Source of the DNA: Alphaproteobacteria bacterium
GTDB lineage: Bacteria; Pseudomonadota; Alphaproteobacteria; Rs-D84
Direction of reading: 5' to 3'
Length of the DNA stretch: 64,000 bases
NCBI GenBank assembly: GCA_017960855.1
Contig: JAGCYJ010000010.1
Location: 8,098 to 72,097, forward strand
The notes under the pieces are model-generated. The model was not told the DNA's origin and ran no database searches. It saw only the letters and a list, made by a program, of their open reading frames with translations. Position numbers and translations under genes: made by a program. The number at the start of each line of letters is the position of its first letter. The stretch's first letter is position 1. This document shows, one piece after another, positions 347-53,721 of the stretch.

Positions 347-1300
347 TTAGTCGGTGCCGAAAGATGTTTGTCCCGTTCCGCCCGGTAAAAGCACCCGTTT
401 GGTAACCGTATCCCACAACGCGTTTGTTGGTGCGGTATAGTTACAGAATGATGTTCCAGATTGGACGGGTTGATATTGGTGTATCAGCGTACCATCTTTG
501 TTCCAAACCTTGATTGAATACAATCTTATACCACCGTTGTTGTTCAAATTCACGGTTTTCCAATCATTTTTAAATATCAATATCGTGTCATCTGCAGAAC
601 ATGTATATGAATTCATTTGTCCCAGACGACCGTTGGAATCAACGGTATCTAAATATATGTATTTCTTCTTGGCGGATGGGTTATAGTTCTTGATTGTCCA
701 CACGTGTTTATTAGACATTGAACCCGGATTCCAAAATGCGCCATATGTGGATGTCCCAATTCTAAAGAATATTTCGCCATAATCGTCAACTGTGACATCA
801 TAGAAACATTTTGCCCCAGAAGTTCCATATAATTGGGCAGAGGTACCATTGACAATCTTGGCGGTTATTTCCACTTCTTGGTCATTAGCAACGGTGGCGC
901 GTGTATCAAAATACTGATTACCATCGGATTCCAAGTACGCATTTAAATTGTTTTGGGTCCATGTACAAGAAGAATCTAATTGCACTGGATCCGGTGGTGT
1001 TGTGGGCATTATGTATTCTTGTCCCCCGCCGCCACATTCGCCGTCGCAAATTGAATATATGGTTCCGTTATATAAAACATGTAACGTGTCAGGTAACGAA
1101 TCGGTGGTCGCATTGGCACACAGGGTTTCGTTGCCATATTTAACATTTAATTTGTGTTCAGAAGTGCAAGTGCTTTGTAAATTGACGGTTGCGCCACCGA
1201 TATGCAATACATATCCACCCGCCATGGTGGTCCATGTCGTGAAAAACAGCGACGTGAAAAACAACGTCCGGATGTTCAAAACCCCTTCCTTTCTGGGCAT
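347..1300 (-). CDS. Secreted protein, smallest member of the mosaic family (N-terminal 'LHIG..LNV..LHV..GTIY' module plus C-terminal LamG/jelly-roll-like module)
   Basis: Hydrophobic N-terminus. aa 28-88 resemble the terminal module of the four giant paralogs. aa 118-317 (YLESDGNQYFDT...IRLYSIKVWNKDGTLIHQYQPV...LWDTVTKRVL) resemble modules in 34615..36666 and 36762..40814. Confidence 0.7.
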   Translation of the reverse strand: MPRKEGVLNIRTLFFTSLFFTTWTTMAGGYVLHIGGATVNLQSTCTSEHKLNVKYGNETLCANATTDSLPDTLHVLYNGTIYSICDGECGGGGQEYIMPTTPPDPVQLDSSCTWTQNNLNAYLESDGNQYFDTRATVANDQEVEITAKIVNGTSAQLYGTSGAKCFYDVTVDDYGEIFFRIGTSTYGAFWNPGSMSNKHVWTIKNYNPSAKKKYIYLDTVDSNGRLGQMNSYTCSADDTILIFKNDWKTVNLNNNGGIRLYSIKVWNKDGTLIHQYQPVQSGTSFCNYTAPTNALWDTVTKRVLLPGGTGQTSFGTD

Positions 1301-1366
1301 TACAGCAGTTAAGGCATAATGCCCCTAATTAAATGATAGAAAAAATGATTTGATCAAGGCAAGACA

Positions 1367-1400
1367 TAAAAAAACACCGCCCGATTGGGCGGTTTTTTTT
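1367..1400 (-). terminator. Intrinsic terminator downstream of the 1475..4798 gene
   Basis: ACCGCCC-GATT-GGGCGGT stem (1376-1393) flanked by A8 and T8 runs, so it is usable on either strand. Confidence 0.6.
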
Positions 1401-1474
1401 ATCTTGGTGCCACGTGTATCTTGTGTGGATAGTTTGGAGAAAGGGACACGCGTGGCATAATGAAACTTTTTTGC

Positions 1475-4400
1475 TTACCCTGGTTGTGCCAATGATACCG
1501 GCGAATATGTGTGATTATCATATTTGATATGTAATCCAGGTGTATTCAAATTATCGTCCTGTTCCATATAGAGATAACAGACAACATCATTTTTCTTTAA
1601 TGCCAAAACCGGTGACGGAACCCCCGTCCGATCCGCCAACAAGTGGTATTGATAATTCCCAACATGCAATACCGACATTGCCGAACAATACGCATGGCAT
1701 TTATCGGCATATTCTGGCATACCCGCTTCGGCACAGGTTTGACACGAAACGCGTGTGCTGCCATCATTTGTGGGAACATTGCTATTACTGTATCCCCAAC
1801 TGGATTCAAAGCCGGTGATATATTGTGTCATTCCCGGGAAAGAATCACAACTGGTGGCAAGTTGGGTGCCGGAAAATGCGCTAGACCACATAGCAGAACC
1901 GGATGATGAACCGGGGTGTATTGTGTCTGGGAATGTTGTTGGCGGTATATAGCCGGTCAGGTTGCTGCAACTGTTAAATAAGTACATAAACATACCACTT
2001 GTATTTGTTGCATGCGATGTGTCAATCGTGCTGAACAAATCAGCCGGAATACTGGTAATGCCAGTATTACTAAATGTGCTACTAAACATATAACTTGTAT
2101 TTGTTGCGGACGATGTGTCAACACCGCTAAATAACCCAGCCGGAATACTGGTAATGCCGGTATTATTAAATGTGTTACTAAACATATAACGTGTATTAGT
2201 TGCGGACGATGTGTCAATATCGCTGAATAAATCCGCCGGAATACTGGTGATACCAGTACCTTGAAATGTGTAGTAAAACATAGAACTTGTATTTGTTGCG
2301 GATGATGTGTCAATATCGCTGAATAATCCCGCCGGTATGCTGGTAATGCCGGCATTGTTAAATGTCATATTAAACATACTACTTGTATCGGTTGCGGACG
2401 ATGTGTCAATACCCCTGAACAATTCCGCCGGAATACTGCTCAGGTTGCTGCAATTATAAAATGCATAATAAAACCGTGGTGTATTTCCATTTACGACCGG
2501 TAACATTGCACCCAATGAACCGGAAATTGACGCAACCTTAGCCTGCGTTCCACCGGATGATATATAAAACGATATTGCGGCCACGTTTCCATCAAGGTAT
2601 CCCGTGGCGGTGCCACCAAAGCGAACCGTGTGCGCCCCCGCCGAACCCCATGTACATGTATAGGTGGTGGTGTTCGTTCCGGTACGGGTGATGGTATTAC
2701 CGGAAATGGTGCTGCCCGTGGTGGTGCCACTTTGTGTCAATGTTCCACCATCACCACAATCGGCATAGAATTCACCAGTCGCTGTCATGGTCCAACTTAG
2801 CGTTGTTGCGTCGTTTGTTGTTGTCACAGAAAATTTTGCAGTTTCGCACGATGTGCCGGTGTTCAGATAACCCGAATCACATGTCCAATTACAGGTTCCC
2901 GCAACATACGATGCGTGTTCCGGTAATGTCCCCGCGCATGGCTCACATGAAACCTTGCCATCCCAATCGGATTCAAAGCCGGTGATATATTGTCCAGTTC
3001 CCACCGGGCATACCGTTAAAAGTTGCGTGTTATAAAATGTTCCGGACCACATACTTGTACTGGATGAAGAACCGGGTTGTATTGTGCTGGGGAATGTTGT
3101 TGGCGGTATATAGCCCCCCAGGTTGCTGCAACCGTAAAATGTATACCGAAACATATAAGTTGTATTTGTTGCGGACGATGTGTCAATCGTGCTGAATAAA
3201 TCCGCCGGAATACTGGTCAGACTGCTGCAACCGGTAAATGTTTCGTTAAACATACTAGTTGTATCGGTTGCGGACGATGTGTCAATGCCACTGAACAACC
3301 CAGCTGGGATACTGGTAATGCCGGTACGGGCAAATGTGCTACTAAACATACCACTTGTATTTGTTGCGGACGATGTGTCAATAGTGCTGAACAAATCAGC
3401 CGGGATACTGGTCAAACCGGTACACCCGTCAAATGTGCCCACAAATATATAACTTGTATTTGTTGCGGACGATGTGTCAATCGCGCTGAATAAATCCGCC
3501 GGGATACTGCCCAGGCTGGTGCAATTACGAAATGTATGCCGAAACATATAAGTTGTATTTGTTGCGGACGATATGTCAATCGTGCTGAATAAATCCGCCG
3601 GAATACTGGTCAGACTGCTGCAATTATAAAATGTGTTACTAAACATATCACTTGTATCTGTTGCGGACGATGTGTCAATCGTGCTGAATAAATCCGCCGG
3701 AATACTGGTGATACCAGTACCTTGAAATGTGCTACTAAATATAGAAGTTGTATTTGTTGCGGATGATGTGTCAATCGCGCTGAATAAACCCGCCGGAATA
3801 CTGGTCAGACTGCTGCAATTATAAAATGTGTCACTAAACATAGAACTTATATTTGTTGCGGACGATGTGTCAATCGTGCTGAATAAACCCGCCGGGATAC
3901 TGCCCAGGCTGGTGCAATTACGAAATGTGCCGTTAAACATAGAACTTATATTTGTTGCGGACGATGTGTCAATCGTGCTGAATAATCCCGCCGGGATACT
4001 GGTCAAACTGCTGCAATTATAAAATGTACCCACAAACATAGAACTTATATTTGTTGCGGACGATGTGTCAATCGCGCTGAATAAATCCGCCGGAATACTG
4101 GTCAAACTGCTGCAACCGTAAAATGTATACCGAAACATATAACTTGTATTGGATACGGACGATGTGTTAAGTCCGCTGAACAAATTCGCCGGAATACTGG
4201 TCAGATTGGTGCAATTGTAAAATGTTTGATAAAACCGTGGAATATTTCCATTTACGACCGGGAACATTGCACCCAATGAACCGGAAATTGACGCAACCTT
4301 GCTTTGTGTTCCACCGGATGATTTATAAAATGCTATGGCAGCGGCTGTTGTTGATGTACTGTATCCCGTGGCGGTGCCACCAAAGCGCACAGTATGCACC

Positions 4401-4798
4401 CCCGCCGACCCCCATGTACATGTATAGGTGGTGTTGGATGTCCCGGTGCGGGTGATGGTATTACCGGAAATGGTGCTGCCCGTGGTGGTTCCACTTTGTG
4501 TCAATGTTCCCCCATCGCCACAATCGGCATAAAACGGACCTTTTGCCGTCATGGTCCAACTTAGCGTTGTCGCATCGCTTGTCGTGGTCACACTGAATTT
4601 CGTGGTTTTGCACTGGGTTCCATCGCCCAGGGCGTCTATTTCGTTTGTTGCACATGCCGCCACCGCCGCGCCCGTCGCCCCAGCGACAAACGCGCATGTC
4701 ACAACAACCACACAAATTGCGTGCAAGAATTTTCCAAAAACACCGTTGACGTTCACAATTTGTTCCCCCCGTTTCCTTTTCAAAAAAGAAACCGTCAA
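1475..4798 (-). CDS. Giant secreted/surface repeat protein: 2 x (DCGDG beta-sandwich + DUF285/BspA-type LRR array) + Cys-rich linkers + terminal module
   Basis: Uninterrupted 1107-codon ORF. The ORF start at 4798 is TTG; a GTG at 4756 preceded by GGGGGGAA is an alternative start. Signal peptide ...FVAGATGAAVAA|C. 11 + 5 repeats of about 33 aa of the form IDTSSATN.S.MF..TF..C.SLTSIPA.LFS. Confidence 0.85.
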   Translation of the reverse strand: MTVSFLKRKRGEQIVNVNGVFGKFLHAICVVVVTCAFVAGATGAAVAACATNEIDALGDGTQCKTTKFSVTTTSDATTLSWTMTAKGPFYADCGDGGTLTQSGTTTGSTISGNTITRTGTSNTTYTCTWGSAGVHTVRFGGTATGYSTSTTAAAIAFYKSSGGTQSKVASISGSLGAMFPVVNGNIPRFYQTFYNCTNLTSIPANLFSGLNTSSVSNTSYMFRYTFYGCSSLTSIPADLFSAIDTSSATNISSMFVGTFYNCSSLTSIPAGLFSTIDTSSATNISSMFNGTFRNCTSLGSIPAGLFSTIDTSSATNISSMFSDTFYNCSSLTSIPAGLFSAIDTSSATNTTSIFSSTFQGTGITSIPADLFSTIDTSSATDTSDMFSNTFYNCSSLTSIPADLFSTIDISSATNTTYMFRHTFRNCTSLGSIPADLFSAIDTSSATNTSYIFVGTFDGCTGLTSIPADLFSTIDTSSATNTSGMFSSTFARTGITSIPAGLFSGIDTSSATDTTSMFNETFTGCSSLTSIPADLFSTIDTSSATNTTYMFRYTFYGCSNLGGYIPPTTFPSTIQPGSSSSTSMWSGTFYNTQLLTVCPVGTGQYITGFESDWDGKVSCEPCAGTLPEHASYVAGTCNWTCDSGYLNTGTSCETAKFSVTTTNDATTLSWTMTATGEFYADCGDGGTLTQSGTTTGSTISGNTITRTGTNTTTYTCTWGSAGAHTVRFGGTATGYLDGNVAAISFYISSGGTQAKVASISGSLGAMLPVVNGNTPRFYYAFYNCSNLSSIPAELFRGIDTSSATDTSSMFNMTFNNAGITSIPAGLFSDIDTSSATNTSSMFYYTFQGTGITSIPADLFSDIDTSSATNTRYMFSNTFNNTGITSIPAGLFSGVDTSSATNTSYMFSSTFSNTGITSIPADLFSTIDTSHATNTSGMFMYLFNSCSNLTGYIPPTTFPDTIHPGSSSGSAMWSSAFSGTQLATSCDSFPGMTQYITGFESSWGYSNSNVPTNDGSTRVSCQTCAEAGMPEYADKCHAYCSAMSVLHVGNYQYHLLADRTGVPSPVLALKKNDVVCYLYMEQDDNLNTPGLHIKYDNHTYSPVSLAQPG
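1950..2470 (-). repeat. Tandem 99-nt (33-aa) coding repeats, C-terminal LRR array (5 units)
   Basis: Recurring strings such as ttgttgcggacgatgtgtcaa...gctgaataa.cc.gccgg.atactggt at a 99-nt period. Confidence 0.85.
3100..4230 (-). repeat. Tandem 99-nt (33-aa) coding repeats, N-terminal LRR array (11 units)
   Basis: gatgtgtcaatcg.gctgaataaatccgccgg starts at 3471, 3570 and 3669 (exact 99-nt spacing). Many units are near-identical at the DNA level. Confidence 0.9.
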
Positions 4799-5080
4799 GC
4801 ATTGACGGTCAGGAGGTTAACGACAATCCAACGAATTGTGCCACTTATTCAATATATTCGTGCGCCCTCCTGACCATATGTGTCAGGAGATTTTCATCGG
4901 AATAAAAACGGTGCATTCGTGCCACGGAATCGTATTCCGACGCGTTGGATTCGGGTCGTTACACCCCATAGCATGAACTCCATGCTACGACACTACAATA
5001 GCAAAGTGTGTCGTCTTATGCAAATGAAAAATTGTCGTTTTTTGATTTTTTTTTCTGGGGGTGTAACAACACGAATGCAA
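4799..5080 (-). promoter_or_regulatory. Long, highly structured upstream/leader region of the 1475..4798 gene (candidate cis-regulatory RNA or small ncRNA; strand not proven)
   Basis: Nested inverted repeats at 4807-4816/4866-4875/4882-4889 (three-way), 4825-4833/4943-4951, 4925-4939, 4958-4967/5058-5067, 4969-4975/4981-4987 and 4988-4993/5008-5013. T9 tract at 5046-5054. Possible TTGCAT-N17-TATTGT promoter on the minus strand (5023..4995). Confidence 0.35.
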
Positions 5081-5081
5081 A

Positions 5082-5103
5082 CCACCGCCCAATTTGGGCG
5101 GTG
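5082..5103 (-). terminator. Hairpin downstream of groEL (CCACCGCCC-AATTT-GGGCGGTG)
   Basis: GC-rich stem 20 nt after the groEL stop. The U-tail on the minus strand is weak. Confidence 0.45.
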
Positions 5104-5122
5104 TCTTTATATATCTATAAAA

Positions 5123-6739: not shown

Positions 6740-6754
6740 AACAGATTCCCCCAA

Positions 6755-7042
6755 TTATTTCAAAATGCCCAAAATGTCAGATTCTTTGATTAAAACATAG
6801 TCGGTACCATCAATTTTAACTTCGTTTGCAGAAGATGCCCATTTTGCGAATAAAACAGTATCGCCAACGGCAACCGTCATCGGTACGCGTGCACCGTTTT
6901 CAACCACGCCGTCGCCAACCGCAATAACGGTTCCGCGTGATGGCTTTTCACGGGCAGTATCTGGAATAATGATTCCGCCGGCTGTTTTTGTTTCTTCTTC
7001 TATTCTTTGCAATAAAACATAGTTATTTAATGGTTTAAACAT
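6755..7042 (-). CDS. groES: Co-chaperonin GroES (Cpn10)
   Basis: MFKPLNNYVLLQRIEEETKTAGGIIIPDTAREKP..G.VIAVG is a typical Cpn10. Lies immediately upstream of groEL. Confidence 0.97.
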   Translation of the reverse strand: MFKPLNNYVLLQRIEEETKTAGGIIIPDTAREKPSRGTVIAVGDGVVENGARVPMTVAVGDTVLFAKWASSANEVKIDGTDYVLIKESDILGILK

Positions 7043-7073
7043 AATATTTATGCCCCCTTGTGCTAACTTTACC

Positions 7074-7103: not shown

Positions 7104-7213
7104 AGGGACAAATATGGGGATAAATACCATAAAATAACATTATTCTGATAATATCGTTTGACAAAACAAAAAAATGTATTATATTTTCGTCAAAATAGCA
7201 AAAGGGTATAAAT

Positions 7214-28987: not shown

Positions 28988-29053
28988 AAATACTGGACAA
29001 AACACCTTGTTGTGCTATTACTGGATTCTGGACACTATGACAAGGATGTAATC

Positions 29054-36761: not shown

Positions 36762-39700
36762 TTGAAACGCACGTTTCTTGCGGTTTTTACGTGTTTGTTT
36801 TGCGCGCTTAATGCGGGCGTGTCTTTTGCGGCAAATAATTGTACGGGCGCAACGTATTATGATGCGGTGAATGATACCTGTATTAACTGTCCCACCGGAT
36901 ATACCGACAATCCAACCGCTGGCAAAACCAGCGCAAGCGAGTGTCAAAGAAGTTGTGCCGCTGGAACATTTATTGCGACCCCCGCATCCGTGGGTTCAAC
37001 CGCCTATACCCGATTAGAATACATTGAAAACCCAAACGGCAAGTATATCAACACCGGATTTTCGCATAGCAAAACCGCGACCACTATTCGTGGTGTATTA
37101 CGTGTCGGCGTATCAACTAATTTGTCAAACAGTTCAAATGTCAATTTCATCGGGAACCAGGCATCCAGTGGCGGTTATTCTGTTGGTTGGAATGCGTATT
37201 TCAAACTTTGGACCCAGTCATCAAACAGCCGACTAGAGGGGCCCGCATATCCAATGACGGCTGGAACTGTTCATGAAATCGAATACACACTGACAAACAC
37301 CACTCGTTCGTTAGTGTATGATGACGGGCGAAGCAAATCTGACACTTTTAGTGGCGGTAAGATCGTGGACCCCGCCACCACCATACACCTTTTTGATGCT
37401 GGTAATATTCAAGCTGCGCGTTCGTTCAAGGGGCGTATTTACGATTTAAAAGTGTATGAAGACGACGTGTTGGTCCATAATTTTGTCGCTGCGCGTCGCA
37501 ACAGCGATGGCAAAATCGGTATGTATGATACAGTAGCCGATGCGTTTTTGACTGGAAACGGCACATTTACCGCTGGACCCGATGCGGGCGCATGTTCGGA
37601 CGTGGGTATCGGGTACTATTCCAATGCGTCTATGACCGATTATGGTTCTACCAGTACCCGCATTATGTGTACAAATGGTCCGATACACACACACTATACC
37701 GCATCCGCCACATCTAATTCGTGTGCGTATGAGTGTGATGATAATTACGTTATGGAAAATGGTGTATGCGAATTTCAGGATAAATTTACCATAACCACAA
37801 CATCCAATGCGACGGAATTGCGGTTTGACATATCCGCGATTGGCACGTACTATGTTGATTGTGGCACCGATGGTGTGTTGACCCAGACCACGTATAGTGG
37901 TGACAATAACGCGGCCGGAACCGTCATCACCCGTACCAATACCACGAAACTGACCTATTCATGTGCTTGGCCGACTGCGGGTGTGCATACGGTAAAGTTT
38001 GCGGGGACAACAACATCGTATAATACAACCGCCACCATACCCGCGATAAGTTTTGCACCTACGGCCAATAAAATTGCGTCAATGACCGGTTCGTTGTCTG
38101 CGATTTTTCCGCAAAAGAGTGCATCAAACGGGCAATACCCGCGTTTTTATCAGACATTCAAGGGGGCAACCAACCTGACCAGTGTTCCGGCGGGATTGTT
38201 TACTGGAATAACCGGCAATGCAAACGCATCAAACATGTTTCGTGAAACATTTTATGGGTGTACCGCGCTTAATGCGATTCCGGCGGGATTGTTTGCCGGT
38301 GTAACAACGGGTGCGACGGATATGTTCCGATCAACATTTCAGGGTTGTACATCATTAACGTCTATTCCAGATGATTTATTCAGTGGCATGACCACCGCGG
38401 CATCGGGCCTGTTTCAGGCTACATTCAAGAATGCGACGCACTTGGCGGGGTATATACCGCCAACGACATTTGCGGGGCTTATTGCGAACACTTCGCCGAC
38501 AGACACTAATATGTGGACCGAAACGTTTAGTGGTACCGCTGTTGCCACAACCTGTCCGACGGGATTGGATGATTACCCGACCGGCTATGAATCCGAATGG
38601 GCGAATCATGTATCGTGTTATGTTGCATGTCCTGATACTCCACCCACGAACAGTGCTTGGCAAGTCATCAATAATACATGCGTATGGTTGTGCAACGCGG
38701 GGTATTACAGCGCGGACAACACATCGTGCACCGCGGTCGACACCGGTTATTATTCTGGTGACGGCGACAACACGCAAACGGCATGTACCAACAAACCGGC
38801 GAACAGCCATTATACCGGTTCGGCGATAACCGACAATTGTCCGTGGCAATGTGACACGGGCTATGGCAGCGATGCCGGCACCTGTCGCGCGTGTACGGCG
38901 AGTGAATTTTTGACCAACGGTGGTATTTGTGTGAACACAAAGTTTACCGTCACAACCACAAATAGTACAAGCGAATTTAAGTTCTTTATGTGGGAACCAA
39001 CTGGAACATTCTATGTCGATTGGGGCGACGGCAACGTTGATACAATTACGCGTACCAATTCGACCGGAAACACATATTCCCATGACTATGCCGCGACCGG
39101 TTCATATACAATTCGATTTGGTGGTGTTGCGACGGGGTATGATGGAAACTCGGCACATACCGCAATAAGTTTTTATGGGCAAACCGGCGGAACCCAGGAT
39201 AAAATCGCATCCGTTACGGGATCGCTGGCTGCGTTGTTTCCAACCCCCAATGATAGTGCGTTGCCGTTTTTCCGTGAAACATTCCGGGGGGCAACAAACC
39301 TGACATCGGTTCCCAATACACTGTTCGATGGCATAACCCAGACCCATGGTCACATGTTTTATCATACATTCGATGGCGCGGGCTTGACCGCGATTCCATC
39401 TGATTTATTCAGTGATGTCCACTCGTTGGGGGTTGGTATGTTTGAATATACATTTGCTAACTGCGCTTCGTTGACCGCGATTCCAAGTGGATTATTTGAT
39501 GATATGACCGCCAGTGGTGCGGTGGACAATATGTTTGAGGGAACATTTACGGGATGTACATCATTGACCACGATACCAGCCGGTTTGTTTGATGATGTTA
39601 TTGCCAGTTCGTCAAATTGGACACGGCTTTCCAGTACCAGTACCGGCGGTGTATTCCGTGATACGTTTAGTGGCTGCACATCATTAACCTCTGTTCCGGC

Positions 39701-40814
39701 GGAACTGTTTAGCGGAATGACAATCAATGGAATACCATATATGTTCGCCAACACATTTAAAAATTGTTCATCATTGGCGACGATACCGACCGGATTATTT
39801 GATGATATTACGACATCAGGGACGGCGTTCAATATGTTTGAATACACATTTGAGGGTTGTACATCATTGAACGCGATACCGTCGGACTTGTTTGATGATG
39901 TTATTAGTGGTGCAGCCAGCGGAACTGACAAAACCGGCTGGTTCAAGGATACATTTAATGGCTGTACGGGATTGACCGCGATACCGGCCGAATTGTTTAG
40001 TGGTATGACCACCGCTGCAGAGAATTTGTTCTATGGCACATTTAATGGTTGCACGAATTTGGCGGGATATATTCCACCAACCACATTTGCGGGGTTAATT
40101 ACGAATGACAGCACGAAAAACACAAATATGTGGGGTAATGCGTTCGTTGGAACAAATTTGGTGACGGTGTGTCCAGCGGGAACGACACAGTATATCACGG
40201 GCTATGAAGGTTCAACAAACGGAACGACCTGGAATGGCAAGGTTTCATGTGAACCATGTGCCGCCGGAACATATAAAGCAACAGCAGGCAACGGTGCGTG
40301 TACCGCGTGCGAAATTGGAACCTATGCCGCTGCTGGTGCGGTGTCTTGTACGGCATGCACAAATACCAAACCTGCAAACAGTTCGTATAGTTCTAACGCT
40401 ACGACAAATGCGTGTTTGTGGTTATGTGATGGGGGGTATTACAGCACGGATAGCGCGTCCTGTACAGAGGTTGGTGCGGGTTGGTATTCCGCTGATGGCG
40501 ACAATACGCGCAGTGCTTGTGCCGCTGGACTTACCACTGTGGGTTATGGGCATGGTGCGGATGAAGTGGCCGATTGTGGTCATGAATTACACCTTGGAGA
40601 TTTTGTCTTTTATACTAAACAAACAAAATCAACAACACCGGCATTGAACATTACTGATGGCACATCTGTTTCATACCTAGGGGCCAGTACAACCAACCAG
40701 AGTTTATCGAAATTGCATATTTCAGATGGAACAACACAATATACTGCGTATGATGACGGATTATTGTATGGGGAACGGAATGCAACAACGGGGCAACGTA
40801 TTACGCAACAATAA
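36762..40814 (+). CDS. Giant secreted mosaic protein (1350 aa): LamG-like module + 2 x (beta-sandwich + DUF285/BspA-type LRRs) + Cys-rich repeats + terminal module
   Basis: TTG start after GGAAAGGGGG. Signal peptide MKRTFLAVFTCLFCALNAGVSFA. KFTITTT..YYVDCGTDG and KFTVTTT..FYVDWGDGN units. CEPCAAGTYKATAGNGACTACEIGTY. Confidence 0.88.
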   Translation: MKRTFLAVFTCLFCALNAGVSFAANNCTGATYYDAVNDTCINCPTGYTDNPTAGKTSASECQRSCAAGTFIATPASVGSTAYTRLEYIENPNGKYINTGFSHSKTATTIRGVLRVGVSTNLSNSSNVNFIGNQASSGGYSVGWNAYFKLWTQSSNSRLEGPAYPMTAGTVHEIEYTLTNTTRSLVYDDGRSKSDTFSGGKIVDPATTIHLFDAGNIQAARSFKGRIYDLKVYEDDVLVHNFVAARRNSDGKIGMYDTVADAFLTGNGTFTAGPDAGACSDVGIGYYSNASMTDYGSTSTRIMCTNGPIHTHYTASATSNSCAYECDDNYVMENGVCEFQDKFTITTTSNATELRFDISAIGTYYVDCGTDGVLTQTTYSGDNNAAGTVITRTNTTKLTYSCAWPTAGVHTVKFAGTTTSYNTTATIPAISFAPTANKIASMTGSLSAIFPQKSASNGQYPRFYQTFKGATNLTSVPAGLFTGITGNANASNMFRETFYGCTALNAIPAGLFAGVTTGATDMFRSTFQGCTSLTSIPDDLFSGMTTAASGLFQATFKNATHLAGYIPPTTFAGLIANTSPTDTNMWTETFSGTAVATTCPTGLDDYPTGYESEWANHVSCYVACPDTPPTNSAWQVINNTCVWLCNAGYYSADNTSCTAVDTGYYSGDGDNTQTACTNKPANSHYTGSAITDNCPWQCDTGYGSDAGTCRACTASEFLTNGGICVNTKFTVTTTNSTSEFKFFMWEPTGTFYVDWGDGNVDTITRTNSTGNTYSHDYAATGSYTIRFGGVATGYDGNSAHTAISFYGQTGGTQDKIASVTGSLAALFPTPNDSALPFFRETFRGATNLTSVPNTLFDGITQTHGHMFYHTFDGAGLTAIPSDLFSDVHSLGVGMFEYTFANCASLTAIPSGLFDDMTASGAVDNMFEGTFTGCTSLTTIPAGLFDDVIASSSNWTRLSSTSTGGVFRDTFSGCTSLTSVPAELFSGMTINGIPYMFANTFKNCSSLATIPTGLFDDITTSGTAFNMFEYTFEGCTSLNAIPSDLFDDVISGAASGTDKTGWFKDTFNGCTGLTAIPAELFSGMTTAAENLFYGTFNGCTNLAGYIPPTTFAGLITNDSTKNTNMWGNAFVGTNLVTVCPAGTTQYITGYEGSTNGTTWNGKVSCEPCAAGTYKATAGNGACTACEIGTYAAAGAVSCTACTNTKPANSSYSSNATTNACLWLCDGGYYSTDSASCTEVGAGWYSADGDNTRSACAAGLTTVGYGHGADEVADCGHELHLGDFVFYTKQTKSTTPALNITDGTSVSYLGASTTNQSLSKLHISDGTTQYTAYDDGLLYGERNATTGQRITQQ

Positions 40815-46023: not shown

Positions 46024-49000
46024 ATGAAGCGCATTTTGTCAATCTTGTTTATGTGCCTTTTTGTGGTGCTGTCGCCGACACGCGCCAGTGCCGCATGCAC
46101 ATCAAGCCAAATTGACGTTTTGGGTGATGGTACCCAATGCGAAACATCCAAGTTTGAATTGACAACAACATCATTGGCAGCAAATACAACATTCACATTT
46201 ACATTGGGGGCATCCGGTACATTCTATGTTGATTGGGGTGATGGCGGTGCGGTTGAAACAATCGCGCGCGACAGTGTAACCGCCACAGATTATACGCATA
46301 CATATACGACCGCCGGGGTATATACTATACGATTCAGTGGTCTTGCAACGGAATATGATGTATCTAGTAATGGATCTACGACAATATCATTCTATAAAGC
46401 GTCTGGCGGATCCCAGGGAAAGATTGCATCAATTTCTGGTAATTTGGCATCAATATTCCCTTATTTGGGATCGGAAAATAATCAAGCACCAAGGTTTTAT
46501 GGAACTTTTCGTGGTGCAACAAATTTGACGTCAATACCTGCGACTTTGTTCAGTGGTATTACCACTGGAGAGGGTGGGATGTATATGTTTGGTATGACAT
46601 TTTATGGTTGTACTGGTTTGACCAGTATACCGGCGACATTGTTTAGTGGTATTACCACTGGTGCAAATAGCATGTTCTCCAATACATTTTCCGGTTGCAC
46701 GGGGTTAACCAGTTTACCTGAGGGATTGTTCAGCAGTATTACTACTGGGGGATATCAAATGTTCTCCAGTACATTTTCCGGTTGCACGGGATTGACTCGT
46801 ATCCCTGCAAGATTATTCAGCGGTCTTACCACCGTGGGTGGTTATATGTTTCAGTTTCTGTTTAATGGTTGTAAAAACTTGGCTGGTGTCATACCACCGG
46901 ATACTTTTGCTGGATTAACTGCTAATGGTGCTCCAACCAATACTTATATATGGACAAGTGCTTTTACGAATACTAAATTGGCGACATCGTGTCCTGCTGG
47001 CACCCATCAGCATTACACCGGATACGAAAGTAAAAGTACTGGGTTGTTTGAGGACAGGGTTTCATGCGCATGTGATGATGGAACGTGGGGTGATGGCAAC
47101 ACGTGTACAGCATGTGCCAATACACACCCGGCGCATTCATCTTATTATGGTCTTGCAACAACTGCCACATGTCCATGGGCGTGTGATGCTGGGTATTATT
47201 GGGATGGTACCGCATGTTCGGTGTGTTCCAACAGTGCCCCCGCCAACAGTACATTCACACCCGGATCGACAACCGCTACATGTCCGTGGACGTGTAACGC
47301 GGGCTATATTACCAATGGCAATTCGTGCGATGCCCCTGCATTCAGCGTGACAACAACATCATTACCATTTGGCGACAAATTTACATTCAGTTTATCTGCG
47401 GTTGGAACGTTTTATGTTAATTGGGGTGATGGCACCGAAGAAACAATCGTTCGCGATAATACAACCAGCACATGGTATACGCATACATATACAACGCCGG
47501 GGGTACATACAATTAATTTTGGTGGTACCGCAACGGCATATAACACATCTACAAGTGTTGCGACAATATTATTCTATAAATCGTCTGATGGGTCCCAGAA
47601 AAAAATTGCATCAATTTCCGGTAATCTGGCAACGATATTTCCATCTTATGGCACGGATTCTGGACAATCACCACGGTTTAATCGAACATTTCGTGAAGCG
47701 ACTAATTTGACATCAGTTCCTGCGACTTTATTCAGTGGTTTCACCCAAGGGACAAATTATATGTTTTCTGAAACATTTTATGGTTGTACTGGTCTGACCA
47801 GTTTGCCAGCGGGATTATTCAGCAGTTTTACCACAGGTGCAACTTATATGTTTAGTGGTACATTTTATGGTTGTAAGGGTCTGACCAGCTTACCAACGGG
47901 GCTGTTTGGCAATATTACTACTACCACAGGTGCAACTTATATGTTTAATAACACATTTTATGGTTGTACGGGTCTGACCAGTTTGCCGACGGGATTATTC
48001 AGCGGTATGACCAGCGGTACAGGTTATATGTTTTACAACACATTCAAGGGTTGTACTGGTCTGACCAGTTTGCCAGCGGGACTATTCAGCAGTTTTACCA
48101 CAGGTGCAAATTATATGTTTAGTAGTACATTTGAAGGTTGTACGGGTCTGACCAGTTTGCCAGCTGATTTGTTTAGTGGTATGACTACTGGGGCACAGAG
48201 TTTGTTCTCTAGTACGTTTAAAGGTTGTACTGGTCTGACCAGTTTGCCGGATGGATTGTTCAGCAGTATTACCACTGGTGCACAATATATGTTTCTTAGT
48301 ACATTTAATGGATGTACTGGTCTAACTAAATTACCGTCAAGATTATTCAGTGGTCTTACCACCACTGGAAGTTATATGTTTAGCAATACATTTAATGGTT
48401 GTACGAATTTAGGGGGGTATATACCACCGGACACTTTCGCGGGGTTAATTGAGAATGGTTCCCCAAGTGCGAGTATGTGGAATTCCACATTTACAAACAC
48501 ACAGTTGTTAACAGAATGTCCCACTGGTACCGAGCAATATATTACCAGATACGAAGGATCCACCGATGGTACCACTTGGAATGGCAAGGTTTCATGCGGT
48601 TGCGAAGCGGGATATTGGGTTGATGGTGCGACGTGCACGGCATGTTCCAACACAATTCCAGCGCATTCATCTTATACCACGGGCGCGACCAATGCCACAT
48701 GTCCGTGGGTGTGTGATTCGGATTATGTTTCCAACGGCACATCATGCGTCGCACCAGCGTTCAGTGTGACAACAACATCACTGAATGCCAATGATACATT
48801 TACATTCAGTTTAACTGCGGTTGGAACATTTTATGTGAATTGGGGTGACGGTACCCAACAAACGATTGTTCGTACTGATACAACCAGCACATGGTATACG
48901 CATACATATTCATCGGCGGGGACATATACGATTAATTTTGGTGGTATTGCAACGTCATACTATCACGCTGGATATCAGGCGGCAATATCGTTTTATAAAT

Positions 49001-52000
49001 CATCCGGCGGATCACAAGATAAAATCGCGTCTGTTTCTGGTAATTTGGCGACAATATTCCCATATTTGGGTTCGGACGCTAGCCAGAGACCAAAGTTTTA
49101 CCAAACATTTCGTGGGGCAACGAATTTAACGTCTATCTCGGCGGGATTGTTCAGCGGTTTTACCATCGGGGGCGGTCAGATGTTCCATGAAACATTTTAT
49201 GGATGTACTGGTCTGACCAGTATTCCGGCGGGATTATTCAGTTCTATTACCACCGCAGCGGGCACTTCGCAGATGTTTTCAAGTACATTTTACGGATGTA
49301 CGGGTTTGACCACTGTTCCGGCGGATTTGTTCGGTGGCATTACAACCGGTGCGGATCATTTGTTTTATGAAACATTCAGGGGATGTACTGGACTGACCAG
49401 CATACCGGCGGGGTTATTCAATAAAGTAACTTCCTCGGCAGATGCAACTTATATGTTTTATAACACATTTTATGGTTGCACGGGTCTGACCAGTTTGCCG
49501 ACGGGATTATTCAACAGTGTTACCACTGGGGCAGAATATTTGTTCCATGGAACATTTAGGGGGTGCACCGGATTGACCAGTATACCGGCGGGGCTATTCA
49601 GCAGTGTTACGACCGGTGCAAATTATATGTTTATGAACACATTTTATGGATGTACAGGCCTGACCAGTTTTCCTGCGGGCTTGTTCAGCGGACTTACCAC
49701 TGCGGGAAATTATATGTTTGCCTACGTATTTCAAGGTTGCACTAATTTGGCGGGCTTTATACCACCAGATGCTTTTGCGGGGCTGATTGCGAATAATTCG
49801 CCAAACACAACCTATATGTGGAGGGACGCGTTTTACAACACTCAATTGCTGACACAATGTCCAGTTGGTTATACGCAGTATATCACTGGGTACGAAGGAT
49901 CTAGTTATACATCCGCTTGGTACAACAGGGTTTCATGTCAACCATGTCCCGCTGGAACGTATAAGGATGTCGCGGGTAACGAAGCGTGCTCGGCATGTGG
50001 TGTTGGAACATATATGTCGGGTACGGGGGCAACGGAATGCGATGCGTGTACCAATGGACCGGCAAACAGCACTTATACCAGTGGTGGTGGATCAACAAAC
50101 ACTTGCGAATGGTCGTGCGATTCTGGAACGATTCCAACGGGTACATCTTGTGATATACCAAAGTTTGAAGTGACAACGACTGAACTGGATGCGGGTACGA
50201 CATTTACATTTACTTTGTCGGCACAAGGGACATTCTATGTTGACTGGGGCGACGGCAGTGCAGTTCAGACAATCACACGTTCCGATACAACCGCCACCGA
50301 TTACAGTCACACATACGAAACAGCTGGTTCATACACGATAAAGTTTAGCAGCAGTGGCATTACGGCTTATAACGAAGATACGACAACCGCAGCAATCAGT
50401 TTTTATAAATCATCTGGTGGATCACAGGGTAAAATAGCATCTCTTTCTGGCTCGTTGGGGGCGTTGTTCCCAACATTGGCAAGCAGCAGTGGTGGCAGAT
50501 ATGCGCGGTTTATCAATACATTCAGGGGTGCCACCAATCTTACTTCATTGCCGTCAACTTTGTTCAGTGGTGTTGCATCCTCAGGAACATATTTATTTTA
50601 TGGAACATTTTATGGTTGTACGGGACTGACCAGTAATGGAATACCGTCAACGCTGTTCAGCAGTGTCACCACTGGTGGTACCAGAACATTTTATGAGACA
50701 TTCCGTGGTTGTACGGGATTGACAACAATACCGTCGGGATTGTTTAGTACCGTCACAACAAATTCTAATTCTTCCTATTTGTATGTTGGAACATTCCGCG
50801 GTTGTACAGGGTTGACGGAAATACCGTCGGGGCTGTTTAGTCGTGTTACCACAACTTCTACTTATATGTTTCAGAATACATTCTATGGTTGTACGGGGTT
50901 GACCACAATACCATCGGGATTGTTTAGCAACATTAATGCTGGTGGGGCGACTTATCTGTTTAACGGAACATTCTATGGTTGTACGGGTCTAACCAGTATT
51001 CCAGAGGGGTTATTCAGCAGAATTACGGCTGGTAAAGATTACATGTTTTCTGAAACATTTCGTGGGTGTACCAATTTGACGGCATTGCCCAGTGGTTTGT
51101 TCAGTAACATTACGACGACCACCAGTGCTCAGTATTTATTCGATAACACGTTTTTGGGGTGCAGTAAATTGGCCACTGTTCCGGCGAATACATTTAGTGG
51201 AATTACATCAGCTTCTGCAGAAGGTGTCTTTCGTGGCACATTCCAAAGTTGTACCAGTTTGACTAGCATAGATGCTGGATTGTTCAGCGGTATTACCAGT
51301 GCGGTACTTAGGACGTTCAATGCTACTTTCCAAGGGGCTGGTCTGACCAGCATACCAGATGGATTATTCAGTGGTATTACTGCGGGGGCGCATAGTATGT
51401 TTTATTCTACATTCCAAGAATGCACATCGTTGACCGCATTGCCACCAAACTTGTTCGCGAATATTACCAGTGGTGTCGGAAATAGTACATTCCGAAGCAC
51501 GTTTTATGGTTGTTCAAATTTGCGCGGATATGTCCCCCCAACGTTCTTTGCGGGGCTTATTGCGAATAATTCGCCGTACACGGGACCAAATGGCATGGCT
51601 ACTTTGTTCCAGGGTACTAGTTTGGCAACATCCTGTCCGGCGGGCACAACACAATATATTACCGGGTACGAAAGTTATTGGACTTCCAAGGTTTCATGTC
51701 AACCATGTCCCGCGGGAACTTATAAGTCGGGTTCAGGCAATGGTGCGTGCTCGGCATGTGGTGTTGGAACATATATGGCGGACACTGGTGCGACCGCATG
51801 TACCGCGTGTACCAACACAATACCAGAAAATGCGGTCTATTCAACCAATGGTGGTGACGGCGGAACAACCAACACATGCGAATGGTCGTGCGATTCGGGA
51901 ACAATTCCCACCGGCACATCGTGTGAAATGCCAAAGTTCAGTGTCACGACAACGTCAATGGCGGCAAATACGGCGTTTTCGTTTAGTTTGTCGGCAACTG

Positions 52001-53721
52001 GAACATTTTATATTGATTGCGGTGATGGTGGAACGTTAAGACAATTTTCCCCATCCAGCACGATTTCCAACAAGACGATAACCCGTGATAGCGCTTTACC
52101 GTCCAAGTATTCATGTACATGGTCATCGGCGGGTGTACATACGGTTCGTTTCGGTGGTGTGGCAACGGGATACGCTGGTGGGGCCACCAGCAACCCCTAT
52201 GCTCCAATATCGTTTTTTTATGATTCATCAACCGGGCGGAATTTTATTGTATCAGTTGACGGTTCGTTGGGTGCGTTATTTCCACAGTTGGGAACAGAAG
52301 ATGGAAAGTACCCAAAGTTTAATGGTACGTTCCAGAGTGCACCAAATTTAACAACAATTCCAGGTACATTGTTCAGTGGTTTAACCGGTGGCGATTATAT
52401 GTTTAGTCACATGTTTAGTGGTTGTTCATCATTGACCACAATTCCAGATAATCTGTTTAGTGGAATTACGACCAGTGGTAAATCTATGTTTAACGGCACG
52501 TTTTCCCACACTGGTATTACCAGTATCCCATCTGGATTATTTGATGGCGATGACCTTACCACCGGGGCATATGGTATGTTTTGGAGTGTGTTTAGTGGTT
52601 GCTCGTCATTGACTACAATACTGGCGGGGTTGTTTAGCAATTTTACCACCGGTGGATATGGTATGTTTCAAGGAGCGTTTTCTGATTGTACGTCGTTAAC
52701 AACAATTCCAGGGGACTTGTTCAGTGGTATTACCACTGGGGAACCCGCTATGTTTTATGTTACATTTAGTGGTTGTACTGGATTAACGGAAATTCCAGAA
52801 AACTTATTTGCCAATATTACCACAATTTCTGCGATAAATGCGCCTGTGTTTTGGGAAACATTTAGCGATTGTACCAATTTGACTGGTTTTATTCCGCCGA
52901 CTTTGTTCGCGGGATTGATTGCCAATGGTTCGCCGAATCCGTATCCGGGTACTATGCGTGATCCATTTTTTAACACAGGGACGTTAACCGAATGTCCGGC
53001 GGGGTATACGCAGTATATAACTGGTTATGAAGATGATTGGGGTGGCAAGGTTTCGTGCGAACTGTGTCCGGCGGGAACATATAAGGATACCGTGGGAAAT
53101 CAGGCATGTTCAGCGTGCCCAGCTGGGACCTATATTGGAACCACGGGGGCGACCGCGTGTACGGCATGTCCTGCGCTGGATACCGGATATGCTTATGCAG
53201 ATGGAACGGGTTGGACCGGGTGGAATCAGTGTTCGGAACAGATGCGCCCAACAAACTGTTACAGCGGATATTTAACCAAAACCGCAAGCAGCGCATCTGC
53301 ATGGGGAACCGCGGTATCTACGCTCTCTGCCGAGCCGGGATACGAAGTGACAGGCAGTGGCGATAATACGGTATGTTCGGAATGTGGTGTTGGTCGCTAT
53401 GGACCGGGTGGAACAACAGCATGTTCATCCTGCCCAACTGGTTTAACCACGGTTGGATATGGTTCGGGCGCGGACGAAGCGGGCGATTGTGGGCGTATAT
53501 TACATGTGAGTAATGGTGTTCTGTACCTGCGTAGTGTAAAAAAGACAACGCCTTCACTGAATGTCAGAATAGGTAATGATGTTTTCTATGGTAATATGAG
53601 TACAGAACAGATGAATATGAGTGGTAGTTGTGAAGATAACCCCGAACTGAAAGTCAATAATGGAGGAACAATATATTGGATACATGACGACAGCAGTCAT
53701 TTTTGTGGGGTGCCGATGTAG
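46024..53721 (+). CDS. Giant secreted/surface mosaic protein (about 2565 aa): 5 x (beta-sandwich + DUF285/BspA-type LRR array + IPPxTFAGL cap) separated by Cys-rich repeats, plus terminal module
   Basis: 7.7-kb uninterrupted ORF (ATG 46024, with TTG at 46021). Signal peptide MKRILSILFMCLFVVLSPTRASA. Mature N-terminus ACTSSQIDVLGDGTQCETSKF parallels the 1475..4798 protein. Confidence 0.9.
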   Translation: MKRILSILFMCLFVVLSPTRASAACTSSQIDVLGDGTQCETSKFELTTTSLAANTTFTFTLGASGTFYVDWGDGGAVETIARDSVTATDYTHTYTTAGVYTIRFSGLATEYDVSSNGSTTISFYKASGGSQGKIASISGNLASIFPYLGSENNQAPRFYGTFRGATNLTSIPATLFSGITTGEGGMYMFGMTFYGCTGLTSIPATLFSGITTGANSMFSNTFSGCTGLTSLPEGLFSSITTGGYQMFSSTFSGCTGLTRIPARLFSGLTTVGGYMFQFLFNGCKNLAGVIPPDTFAGLTANGAPTNTYIWTSAFTNTKLATSCPAGTHQHYTGYESKSTGLFEDRVSCACDDGTWGDGNTCTACANTHPAHSSYYGLATTATCPWACDAGYYWDGTACSVCSNSAPANSTFTPGSTTATCPWTCNAGYITNGNSCDAPAFSVTTTSLPFGDKFTFSLSAVGTFYVNWGDGTEETIVRDNTTSTWYTHTYTTPGVHTINFGGTATAYNTSTSVATILFYKSSDGSQKKIASISGNLATIFPSYGTDSGQSPRFNRTFREATNLTSVPATLFSGFTQGTNYMFSETFYGCTGLTSLPAGLFSSFTTGATYMFSGTFYGCKGLTSLPTGLFGNITTTTGATYMFNNTFYGCTGLTSLPTGLFSGMTSGTGYMFYNTFKGCTGLTSLPAGLFSSFTTGANYMFSSTFEGCTGLTSLPADLFSGMTTGAQSLFSSTFKGCTGLTSLPDGLFSSITTGAQYMFLSTFNGCTGLTKLPSRLFSGLTTTGSYMFSNTFNGCTNLGGYIPPDTFAGLIENGSPSASMWNSTFTNTQLLTECPTGTEQYITRYEGSTDGTTWNGKVSCGCEAGYWVDGATCTACSNTIPAHSSYTTGATNATCPWVCDSDYVSNGTSCVAPAFSVTTTSLNANDTFTFSLTAVGTFYVNWGDGTQQTIVRTDTTSTWYTHTYSSAGTYTINFGGIATSYYHAGYQAAISFYKSSGGSQDKIASVSGNLATIFPYLGSDASQRPKFYQTFRGATNLTSISAGLFSGFTIGGGQMFHETFYGCTGLTSIPAGLFSSITTAAGTSQMFSSTFYGCTGLTTVPADLFGGITTGADHLFYETFRGCTGLTSIPAGLFNKVTSSADATYMFYNTFYGCTGLTSLPTGLFNSVTTGAEYLFHGTFRGCTGLTSIPAGLFSSVTTGANYMFMNTFYGCTGLTSFPAGLFSGLTTAGNYMFAYVFQGCTNLAGFIPPDAFAGLIANNSPNTTYMWRDAFYNTQLLTQCPVGYTQYITGYEGSSYTSAWYNRVSCQPCPAGTYKDVAGNEACSACGVGTYMSGTGATECDACTNGPANSTYTSGGGSTNTCEWSCDSGTIPTGTSCDIPKFEVTTTELDAGTTFTFTLSAQGTFYVDWGDGSAVQTITRSDTTATDYSHTYETAGSYTIKFSSSGITAYNEDTTTAAISFYKSSGGSQGKIASLSGSLGALFPTLASSSGGRYARFINTFRGATNLTSLPSTLFSGVASSGTYLFYGTFYGCTGLTSNGIPSTLFSSVTTGGTRTFYETFRGCTGLTTIPSGLFSTVTTNSNSSYLYVGTFRGCTGLTEIPSGLFSRVTTTSTYMFQNTFYGCTGLTTIPSGLFSNINAGGATYLFNGTFYGCTGLTSIPEGLFSRITAGKDYMFSETFRGCTNLTALPSGLFSNITTTTSAQYLFDNTFLGCSKLATVPANTFSGITSASAEGVFRGTFQSCTSLTSIDAGLFSGITSAVLRTFNATFQGAGLTSIPDGLFSGITAGAHSMFYSTFQECTSLTALPPNLFANITSGVGNSTFRSTFYGCSNLRGYVPPTFFAGLIANNSPYTGPNGMATLFQGTSLATSCPAGTTQYITGYESYWTSKVSCQPCPAGTYKSGSGNGACSACGVGTYMADTGATACTACTNTIPENAVYSTNGGDGGTTNTCEWSCDSGTIPTGTSCEMPKFSVTTTSMAANTAFSFSLSATGTFYIDCGDGGTLRQFSPSSTISNKTITRDSALPSKYSCTWSSAGVHTVRFGGVATGYAGGATSNPYAPISFFYDSSTGRNFIVSVDGSLGALFPQLGTEDGKYPKFNGTFQSAPNLTTIPGTLFSGLTGGDYMFSHMFSGCSSLTTIPDNLFSGITTSGKSMFNGTFSHTGITSIPSGLFDGDDLTTGAYGMFWSVFSGCSSLTTILAGLFSNFTTGGYGMFQGAFSDCTSLTTIPGDLFSGITTGEPAMFYVTFSGCTGLTEIPENLFANITTISAINAPVFWETFSDCTNLTGFIPPTLFAGLIANGSPNPYPGTMRDPFFNTGTLTECPAGYTQYITGYEDDWGGKVSCELCPAGTYKDTVGNQACSACPAGTYIGTTGATACTACPALDTGYAYADGTGWTGWNQCSEQMRPTNCYSGYLTKTASSASAWGTAVSTLSAEPGYEVTGSGDNTVCSECGVGRYGPGGTTACSSCPTGLTTVGYGSGADEAGDCGRILHVSNGVLYLRSVKKTTPSLNVRIGNDVFYGNMSTEQMNMSGSCEDNPELKVNNGGTIYWIHDDSSHFCGVPM
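46150..53054 (+). repeat. Five coding super-repeats (units start at about 46150, 47338, 48757, 50161 and 51934), each containing 4-11 LRRs of about 28-31 aa
   Basis: Each unit opens with (K/A)F(E/S)(L/V)TTT...GTFY(V/I)(D/N)(W/C)GDG. DNA-level near-identity also occurs inside arrays, e.g. about 80 nt at 47782 versus 48049. Confidence 0.9.

Follow-up and report, generated by a model that had tools for sequence, protein, structure and literature searches.

The question raised by a 64-kb stretch of alphaproteobacterial DNA (64,000 nucleotides (nt) of contig JAGCYJ010000010.1, called the window throughout) is what its host does with five open reading frames (ORFs), genes A to E, whose predicted products seem to be assembled from the same few domains. 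An earlier note on this DNA described them as a five-member family of mosaic secreted proteins, each with a signal peptide, that fills about 28% of the window. All five were found at the coordinates it gave, and their summed ORF length (~18.0 kb, 28%) agrees with that share. The N-termini, read by eye from the translations, are of the n-h-c type, with a basic n-region, a hydrophobic core and a small-residue or AXA-type site. Putative cleavage sites (marked by a slash) are TMAG/G in A, AAVA/AC in B, VAWA/VD in C, VSFA/AN in D and RASA/AC in E. The five genes make up one family of mosaic proteins, predicted to be Sec-exported and drawn from a small module set. The reading favored here, with a probability of about 0.6, is that they are modular cell-surface proteins of an uncultured rumen or gut alphaproteobacterium, probably attachment proteins, which have diversified by duplication, turnover and recombination between lineages.

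The five genes and their modules

A PKD-like beta-sandwich, several leucine-rich repeats (LRRs) and a cap form what is called the unit; the other modules are cysteine (Cys) repeats, a LamG-like module and a terminal module. They are arranged as follows, with lengths in amino acids (aa):

Gene A, 347..1300, minus strand: 317 aa by translation; signal peptide or anchor, divergent terminal-type hairpin module (aa ~31-90), LamG-like jelly roll (aa ~115-317)
Terminator-like hairpin between genes B and A, 1370..1400, minus strand: ACCGCCCAATCGGGCGGT followed by a T run
Gene B, minus strand: ORF 1475..4798, 1107 aa (TTG at 4798); likely start GTG at 4756, giving 1475..4756
Gene B unit 1, nt 2927-4600, minus strand: C-type PKD-like domain, 11 LRRs of ~33 aa, cap
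Gene B unit 2, nt 1760-2836, minus strand: after a Cys linker, C-type PKD-like domain, 5 LRRs, cap
Gene B putative divergent terminal module, nt 1478-1681, minus strand
Gene C, 34615..36666, plus strand: 683 aa; the longest ORF begins at 34432
Gene C, first half, plus strand: signal peptide 34615-34680, Cys repeat 34681-34830, LamG-like module 1 34837-35430
Gene C, second half, plus strand: Cys repeats including 35560-35718, LamG-like module 2 35725-36294, terminal module 36370-36663
Gene D, 36762..40814, plus strand: 1350 aa; signal peptide, Cys repeat 36834-36989, LamG-like module 36996-37595
Gene D unit 1, 37782-38636, plus strand: C-type PKD-like domain, 3 LRRs
Gene D unit 2, 38940-40253, plus strand: W-type PKD-like domain, 8 LRRs; then Cys repeats and the terminal module (40518-40811)
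Gene E, 46021/46024..53721, plus strand: 2565 aa from the ATG; signal peptide 46024-46092
Gene E units 1 to 5, 46150-47073, 47338-48600, 48757-49941, 50161-51717 and 51934-53076, plus strand: 4, 8, 7, 11 and 5 LRRs; units 1-4 W-type, unit 5 C-type
Gene E, remainder, plus strand: Cys repeats between units, terminal module 53428-53718

The reading frames of 2-7.7 kb are intact in the ORF list of the window. The true start of gene B is likely to be GTG 4756, because it is preceded by a ribosome-binding site (AGGAAACGGGGGGA) and places the hydrophobic core at the N-terminus. A leader of ~330 nt (4757-5082, minus strand) separates the groEL terminator from the gene B start. One hairpin lies at 4867-4889; another, at 4790-4810 and immediately ahead of the ribosome-binding site, resembles a terminator and has a T run. 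This arrangement could be an attenuator, and the leader has no match in Rfam. Given the terminator-like hairpin between genes B and A, gene A is its own transcription unit, and gene E has its own ribosome-binding site and terminators on both flanks. A lipobox reading of the AAC that follows the signal peptide was rejected, as it does not suit gene E and AXA cleavage is likelier. The genes lie at three loci among core genes rather than in a single island, as the earlier note had it, and the flanks are groEL, a guaC-like gene and lysS, and rpsD and smpB.

That the members share a small module set is borne out by all-against-all BLASTP comparison, which gave E values of 0.0 for B and E (43% identity over 1057 aa) and for D and E, 2e-88 for B and D, 1e-68 for C and D, and 5e-14 for C and E. 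The gene A product has no BLASTP match below 1e-3 to the other four family proteins and is tied in by profile and third-party comparison only. The stretch from residue 31 to 316 aligns over its full length with the last 258 aa of the relative P0044 (E 1e-13), a protein that also holds an LRR unit, Cys repeats and a LamG-like domain. Orthologs of gene A (41-43% identity) adjoin family genes in the related loci L006 and L023, and the ortholog alignment matches both the LamG-like module of the gene C family (hhalign probability 98%, E 5e-14) and the terminal module (82%, E 1e-5).

The unit was delimited by landmark motifs and alignments as a beta-sandwich of ~110-125 aa starting KF(S/E)VTTT, a run of LRRs and a conserved cap (G[YF]IPP...C P.G...YITGYE...VSC). 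Two units are present in gene B, two in D and five in E. The LRRs had been assigned to the DUF285/BspA type, and scores over the curated cut-offs uphold this: gene E reaches 68.4 bits on Pfam LRR_5 (PF13306; cut-off 27.7, E 6.9e-19), gene B 57.5 bits on Pfam DUF285 (PF03382; cut-off 25, E 1.4e-15), and genes B, D and E reach 38.7, 57 and 179.2 bits on NCBIfam PARCEL (TIGR02167; cut-off 30). Gene D has no Pfam LRR match at E<=0.01. The tandem arrays have a period of 87-93 nt (29-31 aa) in D and E and 96-99 nt (32-33 aa) in B. Their DNA contains a dyad-symmetric 15-mer, ACTGGTCTGACCAGT, a perfect palindrome with 7-nt arms that codes for TGLTS. It has 25 strand matches with <=2 mismatches against 0.02 expected, all within the LRR arrays of genes B and E (for example 47788-47802, 48055-48069 and 49207-49221 in gene E).

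The sandwich bears the PKD signature DWGDG...Y.H.Y..G.Y.I. Gene E scores 34 bits on Pfam PKD (PF00801; cut-off 23.5, E 2.9e-8) when summed over the protein, with no single stretch over the cut-off. A profile of the module hits PKD structure 4xed (E 0.004), and an AlphaFold model of gene E residues 25-440 shows a confident beta-sandwich (predicted local distance difference test (pLDDT) 86, predicted template modeling score 0.78). Two subtypes of the sandwich lead-in had been described, and they differ beyond the lead-in: the W-type has the canonical PKD-like DWGDG...Y[T/S]H, and the C-type has an insert of 13-14 aa and a Cys pair (DCG...Y[T/S]C) in place of W and H. The C-type is found in both units of gene B, unit 1 of D and unit 5 of E, and the W-type in unit 2 of D and units 1-4 of E; D and E are thus mixed within single proteins, as the earlier note had observed. 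The subtypes are old, since both also occur in other genomes.

The spacers between units are Cys-rich repeats of the Ephrin_rec_like/TNFR type. The description of these repeats as eukaryote-like is in keeping with Pfam Ephrin_rec_like (PF07699; cut-off 23.1), on which gene C scores 31.1 bits, gene E 59 bits in four stretches (E 3.9e-16) and gene D 21.5 bits, just under the cut-off. Two types of N-terminus had also been distinguished. Their motifs are real, but they are not dedicated N-terminal modules and simply reflect whichever module comes after the signal peptide. In type 1 this is the second half of the inter-unit Cys linker, together with the start of the PKD-like domain. Type 2 is the Cys-rich repeat that precedes the LamG-like module, which also occurs internally (aa 316-368 of the 683-aa gene C product) and reaches up to 12 copies in relatives.

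The LamG-like module (~200 aa; two in gene C, one in D) opens with LEY(L/I)E..G..(Y/W)(I/V)NTG. Pfam Laminin_G_1, Laminin_G_2 and Laminin_G_3 have no match in A, C or D at E<=0.01, and a few distant relatives of the module carry PF13385. It is not Pfam but structure that supports the earlier naming of this module: the AlphaFold model of gene C (pLDDT 82.5, ~90 over both LamG-like domains) contains jelly rolls that match laminin LG4-5 pairs and neurexin LNS-EGF-LNS with Foldseek probability 1.00 and E values of 1e-8 to 1e-4 (template modeling (TM) scores of 0.55-0.63 for single-domain targets). The best single-domain TM score to viral ConA-like phage proteins is 0.78. A search of 5.8 billion sequences yielded the relatives P0052 and P0070 (E 1e-15 and 9e-6), which are phage tail proteins by PHROGs. 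PHROGs gave nothing in A, C or the N-terminal third of D.

Genes C, D and E end in a module of ~95 aa with the motif C..G.TT.GYGHGADE..DCG..LH...(Y)...K.TTPSLN......FY...S...H.LS.LH....G..YT.YDD. The earlier note called this module private, and its profile indeed has no match in Pfam, NCBIfam or the PDB sequences. The tail of gene B is weakly suggested to be a divergent copy (12 bits on the hidden Markov model (HMM), hhalign probability 13%), and it matches the terminal-module region of P0046, P0030 and P0048 by BLASTP (E 1e-5 to 4e-4). A homolog search based on a word index turned up only fragments of 59-174 aa for the terminal module and was uninformative. Among 1.84 billion cluster representatives, searched exhaustively with HMMER, 491 clusters (304 at E<=1e-10) carry the module, and the longest of these proteins has 7626 aa. 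Many of the carriers have no other module of the window. The module forms the extreme C-terminus in 189 of the 218 proteins examined and is followed by a LamG-like domain in at least six of them. About 15 proteins (P0160, P0161, P0162, P0176, P0197, P0230 and others) have an additional conserved Cys domain of ~120 aa after the module, and several of the 22 tails classed as other long also bear the LamG-type motif LEYIQS/YVQSSG...YD (for example P0163, P0166, P0171 and P0175). The additional Cys domain (...GCWCK...KCGYYCANNMKG...ITYRTNLY) is unannotated and does not occur in the window.

Distribution, turnover and exchange between lineages

A scan of 185,579 species-representative genomes for the signature of the terminal module found 38 loci, all from metagenome-assembled genomes (MAGs) of uncultured rumen or gut (Alpha)proteobacteria, six of which are titled Candidatus Enterousia sp. 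The terminal module of the window family is 52-61% identical to that of the Candidatus Enterousia MAGs. Candidatus Enterousia belongs to the order Rs-D84, has a genome of 0.75-1.0 Mb and lacks standard sugar, amino-acid and peptide transporters, and a dependence on partners has been proposed for it (PMC12306168). The host of the window is probably an uncultured alphaproteobacterium of the rumen or gut that belongs to this reduced-genome lineage or is a relative of it, and the terminal module is lineage restricted as far as named records go. The unit has relatives in >1000 clusters, of which the named ones are Alphaproteobacteria, Rickettsiales or plain "bacterium", and the wider protein search includes relatives with seven units (P0171 and P0230).

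Gene E, read from its ATG, is identical to MBP5364133.1 on an 82-kb contig, which NCBI names a leucine-rich repeat protein; a relative is named a BspA family leucine-rich repeat surface protein. Three further assemblies hold the gene E product at 99.8% identity, with equal length and unchanged repeat organization. The 2565-aa product thus recurs at 99.8-100% identity with the same repeats in four assemblies, which speaks against the collapse or expansion of repeats during assembly that the earlier note had named as a possible objection. The exact products of D and E had no match in the contig index. The same note considered the architecture to be one that could not be named. For the LRR part this does not hold, as NCBI annotates it as LRR or BspA; no description of the full architecture or of the terminal module was found in the literature searched.

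Every ORF of 41 related loci was typed with home-made HMMs of six modules. At least six architectures recur, namely a C-like form, a D-like form, one to three units followed by Cys4-LamG-Cys2-Term, unit-Cys-LamG-Cys-LamG-Term, unit-Term and an A-like form. Among these loci, the five-unit form of gene E is confined to the window. By synteny, genomes whose LysRS are 92-94% identical differ in the family genes that they have between guaC/orf325 and lysS:

Window and L001: genes C and D
L002, L003, L004 and L037: a single gene of ~950 aa, unit-Cys-LamG-Cys-LamG-Term
L009: two other genes

In L002, L004, L009 and L037, rpsD directly adjoins smpB with no E gene between them, and gene E is therefore an insertion/deletion polymorphism. 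Downstream of rpsD in the close relative L005 (9959-11101), at the E site, lies another signal-peptide ORF that runs off the contig and has no family module in its first 380 aa, which suggests that the site is perhaps a general hot spot for exported proteins.

Divergence was examined against L001 (ENA ERZ27270767, k115_2870518), with synonymous (dS) and nonsynonymous (dN) divergence estimated by the method of Nei and Gojobori. DNA identity is 93-98% across gene C (window 34695-36494) and 77-88% in the flanking genes lysS, orf465 and lemA. The dS values are:

Gene C: 0.15
Gene D, overall: 0.56
Gene D, 5' modules: 0.27-0.33
Gene D, terminal module: 2.2
Flanking lysS, orf465 and lemA: 1.10-1.34

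Since dS in gene C lies below that of the flanks and gene D is a mosaic, gene C and parts of gene D appear to have been exchanged between lineages long after the lineages split. The dN/dS ratio is 0.11 in C and 0.17 in D, from which it follows that both are functional and under purifying selection, and it is 0.04-0.07 in the flanks; C and D are 2-4 times less constrained than the flanking core genes. The L001 ortholog of gene D has the same architecture and has kept 3 + 8 LRRs at ~15% core DNA divergence.

Within this genome, modules of different proteins share 38-55% protein identity and ~73% or less DNA identity, and no identical tract between them is long. The most similar pairs belong to one and the same gene (units 1 and 2 of gene B, 87%; units 2 and 3 of gene E, 70% aa and 85% nt). 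The cassette shuffling between paralogs that had been proposed is for this reason unsupported as a recent event in this genome, where the newest events are intragenic duplications. Shuffling itself is seen across genomes, in the recurrent architectures, the turnover at fixed sites and the mosaic dS. To judge from these sequence comparisons, the repertoire diversifies by intragenic duplication of units and repeats, by gain and loss of modules at fixed hot spots and by recombination of genes or segments between lineages.

Proposed function and rival explanations

The proteins would be strings of binding modules kept apart by disulfide-rich rods. In each unit the PKD-like sandwich would pack on the BspA/DUF285/PARCEL LRR solenoid, which would be closed by the Cys-containing cap. 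The LamG/ConA-like jelly rolls would act as lectins of the kind used by phage tail receptor-binding proteins, and the ephrin-receptor/TNFR-like Cys repeats would serve as spacers. It is the signal peptides that indicate export, and Sec would carry the proteins out. Display on the cell surface would follow, with the terminal module as a common element for sorting, anchoring or assembly. The LRR and LamG modules would then bind glycan or protein ligands on a partner cell, a host surface or a particle, and the family members are in this way probably adhesins. If the genome of the window organism is also ~0.75-1.0 Mb, the 7.7-kb gene E alone takes up ~1% of it, a large investment. Together with the fast turnover and the exchange between lineages, this makes the family an obvious candidate for contact machinery. 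Going further, the terminal module could define a new surface-display or sorting system of ultra-small, partner-dependent gut Alphaproteobacteria, a counterpart of the C-terminal domain (CTD) of the type IX secretion system (T9SS) or of SLH anchors. It would mount exchangeable LRR and phage-type LamG heads for docking on a specific partner (protist, bacterium or host epithelium), and the heads would be traded with phages and between lineages. This extension is speculative and is offered as a tentative idea.

Several results weigh against the surface-protein account or narrow it. Pfam and NCBIfam scans of the family revealed no signature of an autotransporter, a trimeric autotransporter, a type I secretion system (T1SS), a T9SS CTD or a lipobox, and autotransporter, T9SS, T1SS and lipoprotein anchoring were dropped as candidates on this ground. 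The terminal module in the AlphaFold model of gene C consists of three beta-hairpins at a pLDDT of 60-77, which is moderate confidence only. In gene A the divergent terminal-type module sits at the N-terminus, and ~13% of the terminal-module carriers have a LamG-like domain or the ~120-aa Cys domain behind it. With its position varying in this way, the module would be better read as an anchoring or assembly domain than as a cleaved secretion signal. The model of the unit found no match in the PDB below E 0.1 with Foldseek; for this reason the sandwich is named only PKD-like and the fold assignment of the unit follows Pfam and NCBIfam. The loci labeled Enterousia have no core gene in common with the window, and the host assignment rests on the family itself and on rumen MAG relatives. 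The case for recombination is drawn from a single pair of genomes and from three flanking genes whose dS is close to saturation.

The rival explanations fit the data less well than the surface-protein reading, and none fits as well. The proteins might be released as soluble lectins, nutrient-scavenging binders or effectors that act on host cells. This is unlikely, even though the cleavage sites are of the signal peptidase I type with no recognizable membrane anchor, the modules are all binding-type domains and the host lineage lacks standard transporters. Pfam and NCBIfam show no catalytic or toxin domain in the family, and surface fibrils typically have such lengths (as much as 2565 aa in the window and 7626 aa among relatives) and such rod-like Cys spacers. 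The nearest annotated kin (BspA, DUF285 and PARCEL proteins) are described as membrane or surface targeted (PMC2996958), and an end module common to hundreds of different giant proteins suggests an attachment or sorting step. Antigenic variation within the genome, in which paralogs would act as cassette donors and acceptors and vary the surface on short time scales, is judged quite unlikely. Intragenomic shuffling has been proposed for PARCEL repeats (PMC2996958), and such a process could account for the co-occurrence of C-type and W-type sandwiches in D and in E, for the uncoupling of the PKD-like subtype from the LRR subtype (33-aa repeats in B, 29-31 aa in D and E) and for the dyad-symmetric 15-mer in the LRR DNA with its excess of matches. 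The low identity between modules of different paralogs and the want of long identical tracts are contrary to it, as are the unchanged repeat numbers of gene E in four assemblies and the 3 + 8 LRRs retained in the L001 ortholog of gene D. The window contains no promoterless silent cassettes and no recombinase or invertase genes, and, as regards phase variation, no convincing repeat tract or invertible element was seen near the gene starts.

An origin as tail fibers or receptor-binding proteins of a prophage or tailocin, whether as remnants or as working parts, would explain the homology, in both sequence and fold, between the LamG-like module and domains that are inserted in phage tail proteins. 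It is very improbable in view of the Sec signal peptides on all five proteins, the lack of adjacent phage structural, integrase or lysis genes and the conserved synteny between groEL, lysS, rpsD and smpB; the PHROGs result was blank for A, C and the N-terminal third of D, and LRR/PKD units with a terminal module are unlike phage proteins. Hardly credible is an assembly artifact or a set of decaying pseudogenes. The genes do contain long tandem arrays and come from a short-read MAG, but the repeat copies are only 60-87% identical, which makes the arrays easy to assemble. The same gene E product in four assemblies and the same gene D architecture in L001 argue against an artifact, and a dN/dS of 0.11-0.17 over intact frames of 2-7.7 kb argues against decay.

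Other features of the window and likeness to known systems

Outside the family, the window contains a polymorphic-toxin-like locus (59363-61686) in a stretch of low GC content (0.34). It encodes a 394-aa protein whose N-domain is phage MuF-like and whose C-domain is a Tlde1/YkuD domain of the L,D-transpeptidase type; this is followed by a 113-aa membrane ORF, an orphan copy of the last ~35 residues of the toxin (61127-61342) and a second, similar membrane ORF (61360-61686); a homolog of the toxin with 79% identity is found in L014. An orphan ORF of 758 aa (29012-31288), rich in W, Y, C, K and E, lies in a segment with a GC content of 0.36 inserted between tgt and orf325. It is missing from the syntenic L002, L004, L009 and L037 and has no match in Pfam, NCBIfam or PADLOC. 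Directly downstream of lysS, a 465-aa ORF (orf465, 42489-43886) is present in every syntenic relative at 57-88% identity and has no match in the same three collections; it is a lineage-conserved protein without an assigned function. PADLOC gave nothing for the orphan ORFs that neighbor family genes, and an Rfam scan of the window gave three transfer RNAs and nothing else.

The terminal module resembles the T9SS CTD, the anchors of trimeric autotransporters and SLH modules by functional analogy only: it is beta-rich, ~95 aa long, and forms the very end of hundreds of large exported proteins of one lineage that are otherwise unrelated. It matches none of these families in sequence or profile, may be followed by another domain and is N-terminal in gene A. 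A T9SS is not expected in Alphaproteobacteria.

The jelly roll-Cys spacer-jelly roll of gene C is like the laminin LG and neurexin LNS pairs (PDB 5ik4 and 3asi), with a Foldseek E value of 1e-8 to laminin LG4-5 and LNS5-EGF3-LNS6. It differs in having 8-15% identity, no Pfam Laminin_G match and spacers that are ephrin-receptor/TNFR-like rather than EGF. The likeness, being one of fold only, gives no evidence of a eukaryotic origin of the arrangement, and that candidate was dropped. The ConA-like/LamG domains of phage tails (P0052, P0070 and BFVD A0A8S5TMI0) are closer. They carry the signature LEYIESTGtQYIdTG ... LYD.V...FYtN.G.G.F, and a TM score of 0.78, a root-mean-square deviation of 2.7 A and up to 22% identity to a gene C domain were obtained. 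Here, in contrast, the domain belongs to Sec-exported proteins of the cell, encoded at conserved sites of the chromosome; it has Cys repeats on its flanks and no phage context.

The BspA/DUF285/PARCEL proteins are like the window family in their LRR arrays that pass curated thresholds, tandem organization in variable number, predicted N-terminal export signals, dyad symmetry of the repeat DNA (described for PARCEL by Roske et al. 2010, PMC2996958), punctate distribution and signs of gene flux. The canonical PARCEL period is 25 aa, although non-canonical, lineage-specific lengths have also been described, and Alphaproteobacteria go unmentioned in the main text of the 2010 survey (PMC2996958). 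The window repeats, unlike the canonical ones, are 29-33 aa long; their arrays are led by a PKD-like sandwich and closed by the GYIPP...YITGYE...VSC cap, the whole unit is repeated (up to five times here and seven in relatives), and it occurs alongside TNFR/ephrin-like Cys rods, LamG-like domains and a terminal module peculiar to the lineage. All the building blocks are known already, and automatic annotation gives these proteins LRR or BspA names. The terminal module (491 clusters) and the unit (>1000 clusters) merit curated family models to replace the label "hypothetical". New are the composite architecture, the recognition of the unannotated terminal module and of the PKD-like/LRR/cap unit as large families, and the link of phage-type LamG heads to a reduced-genome gut alphaproteobacterial lineage with measurable gene exchange.

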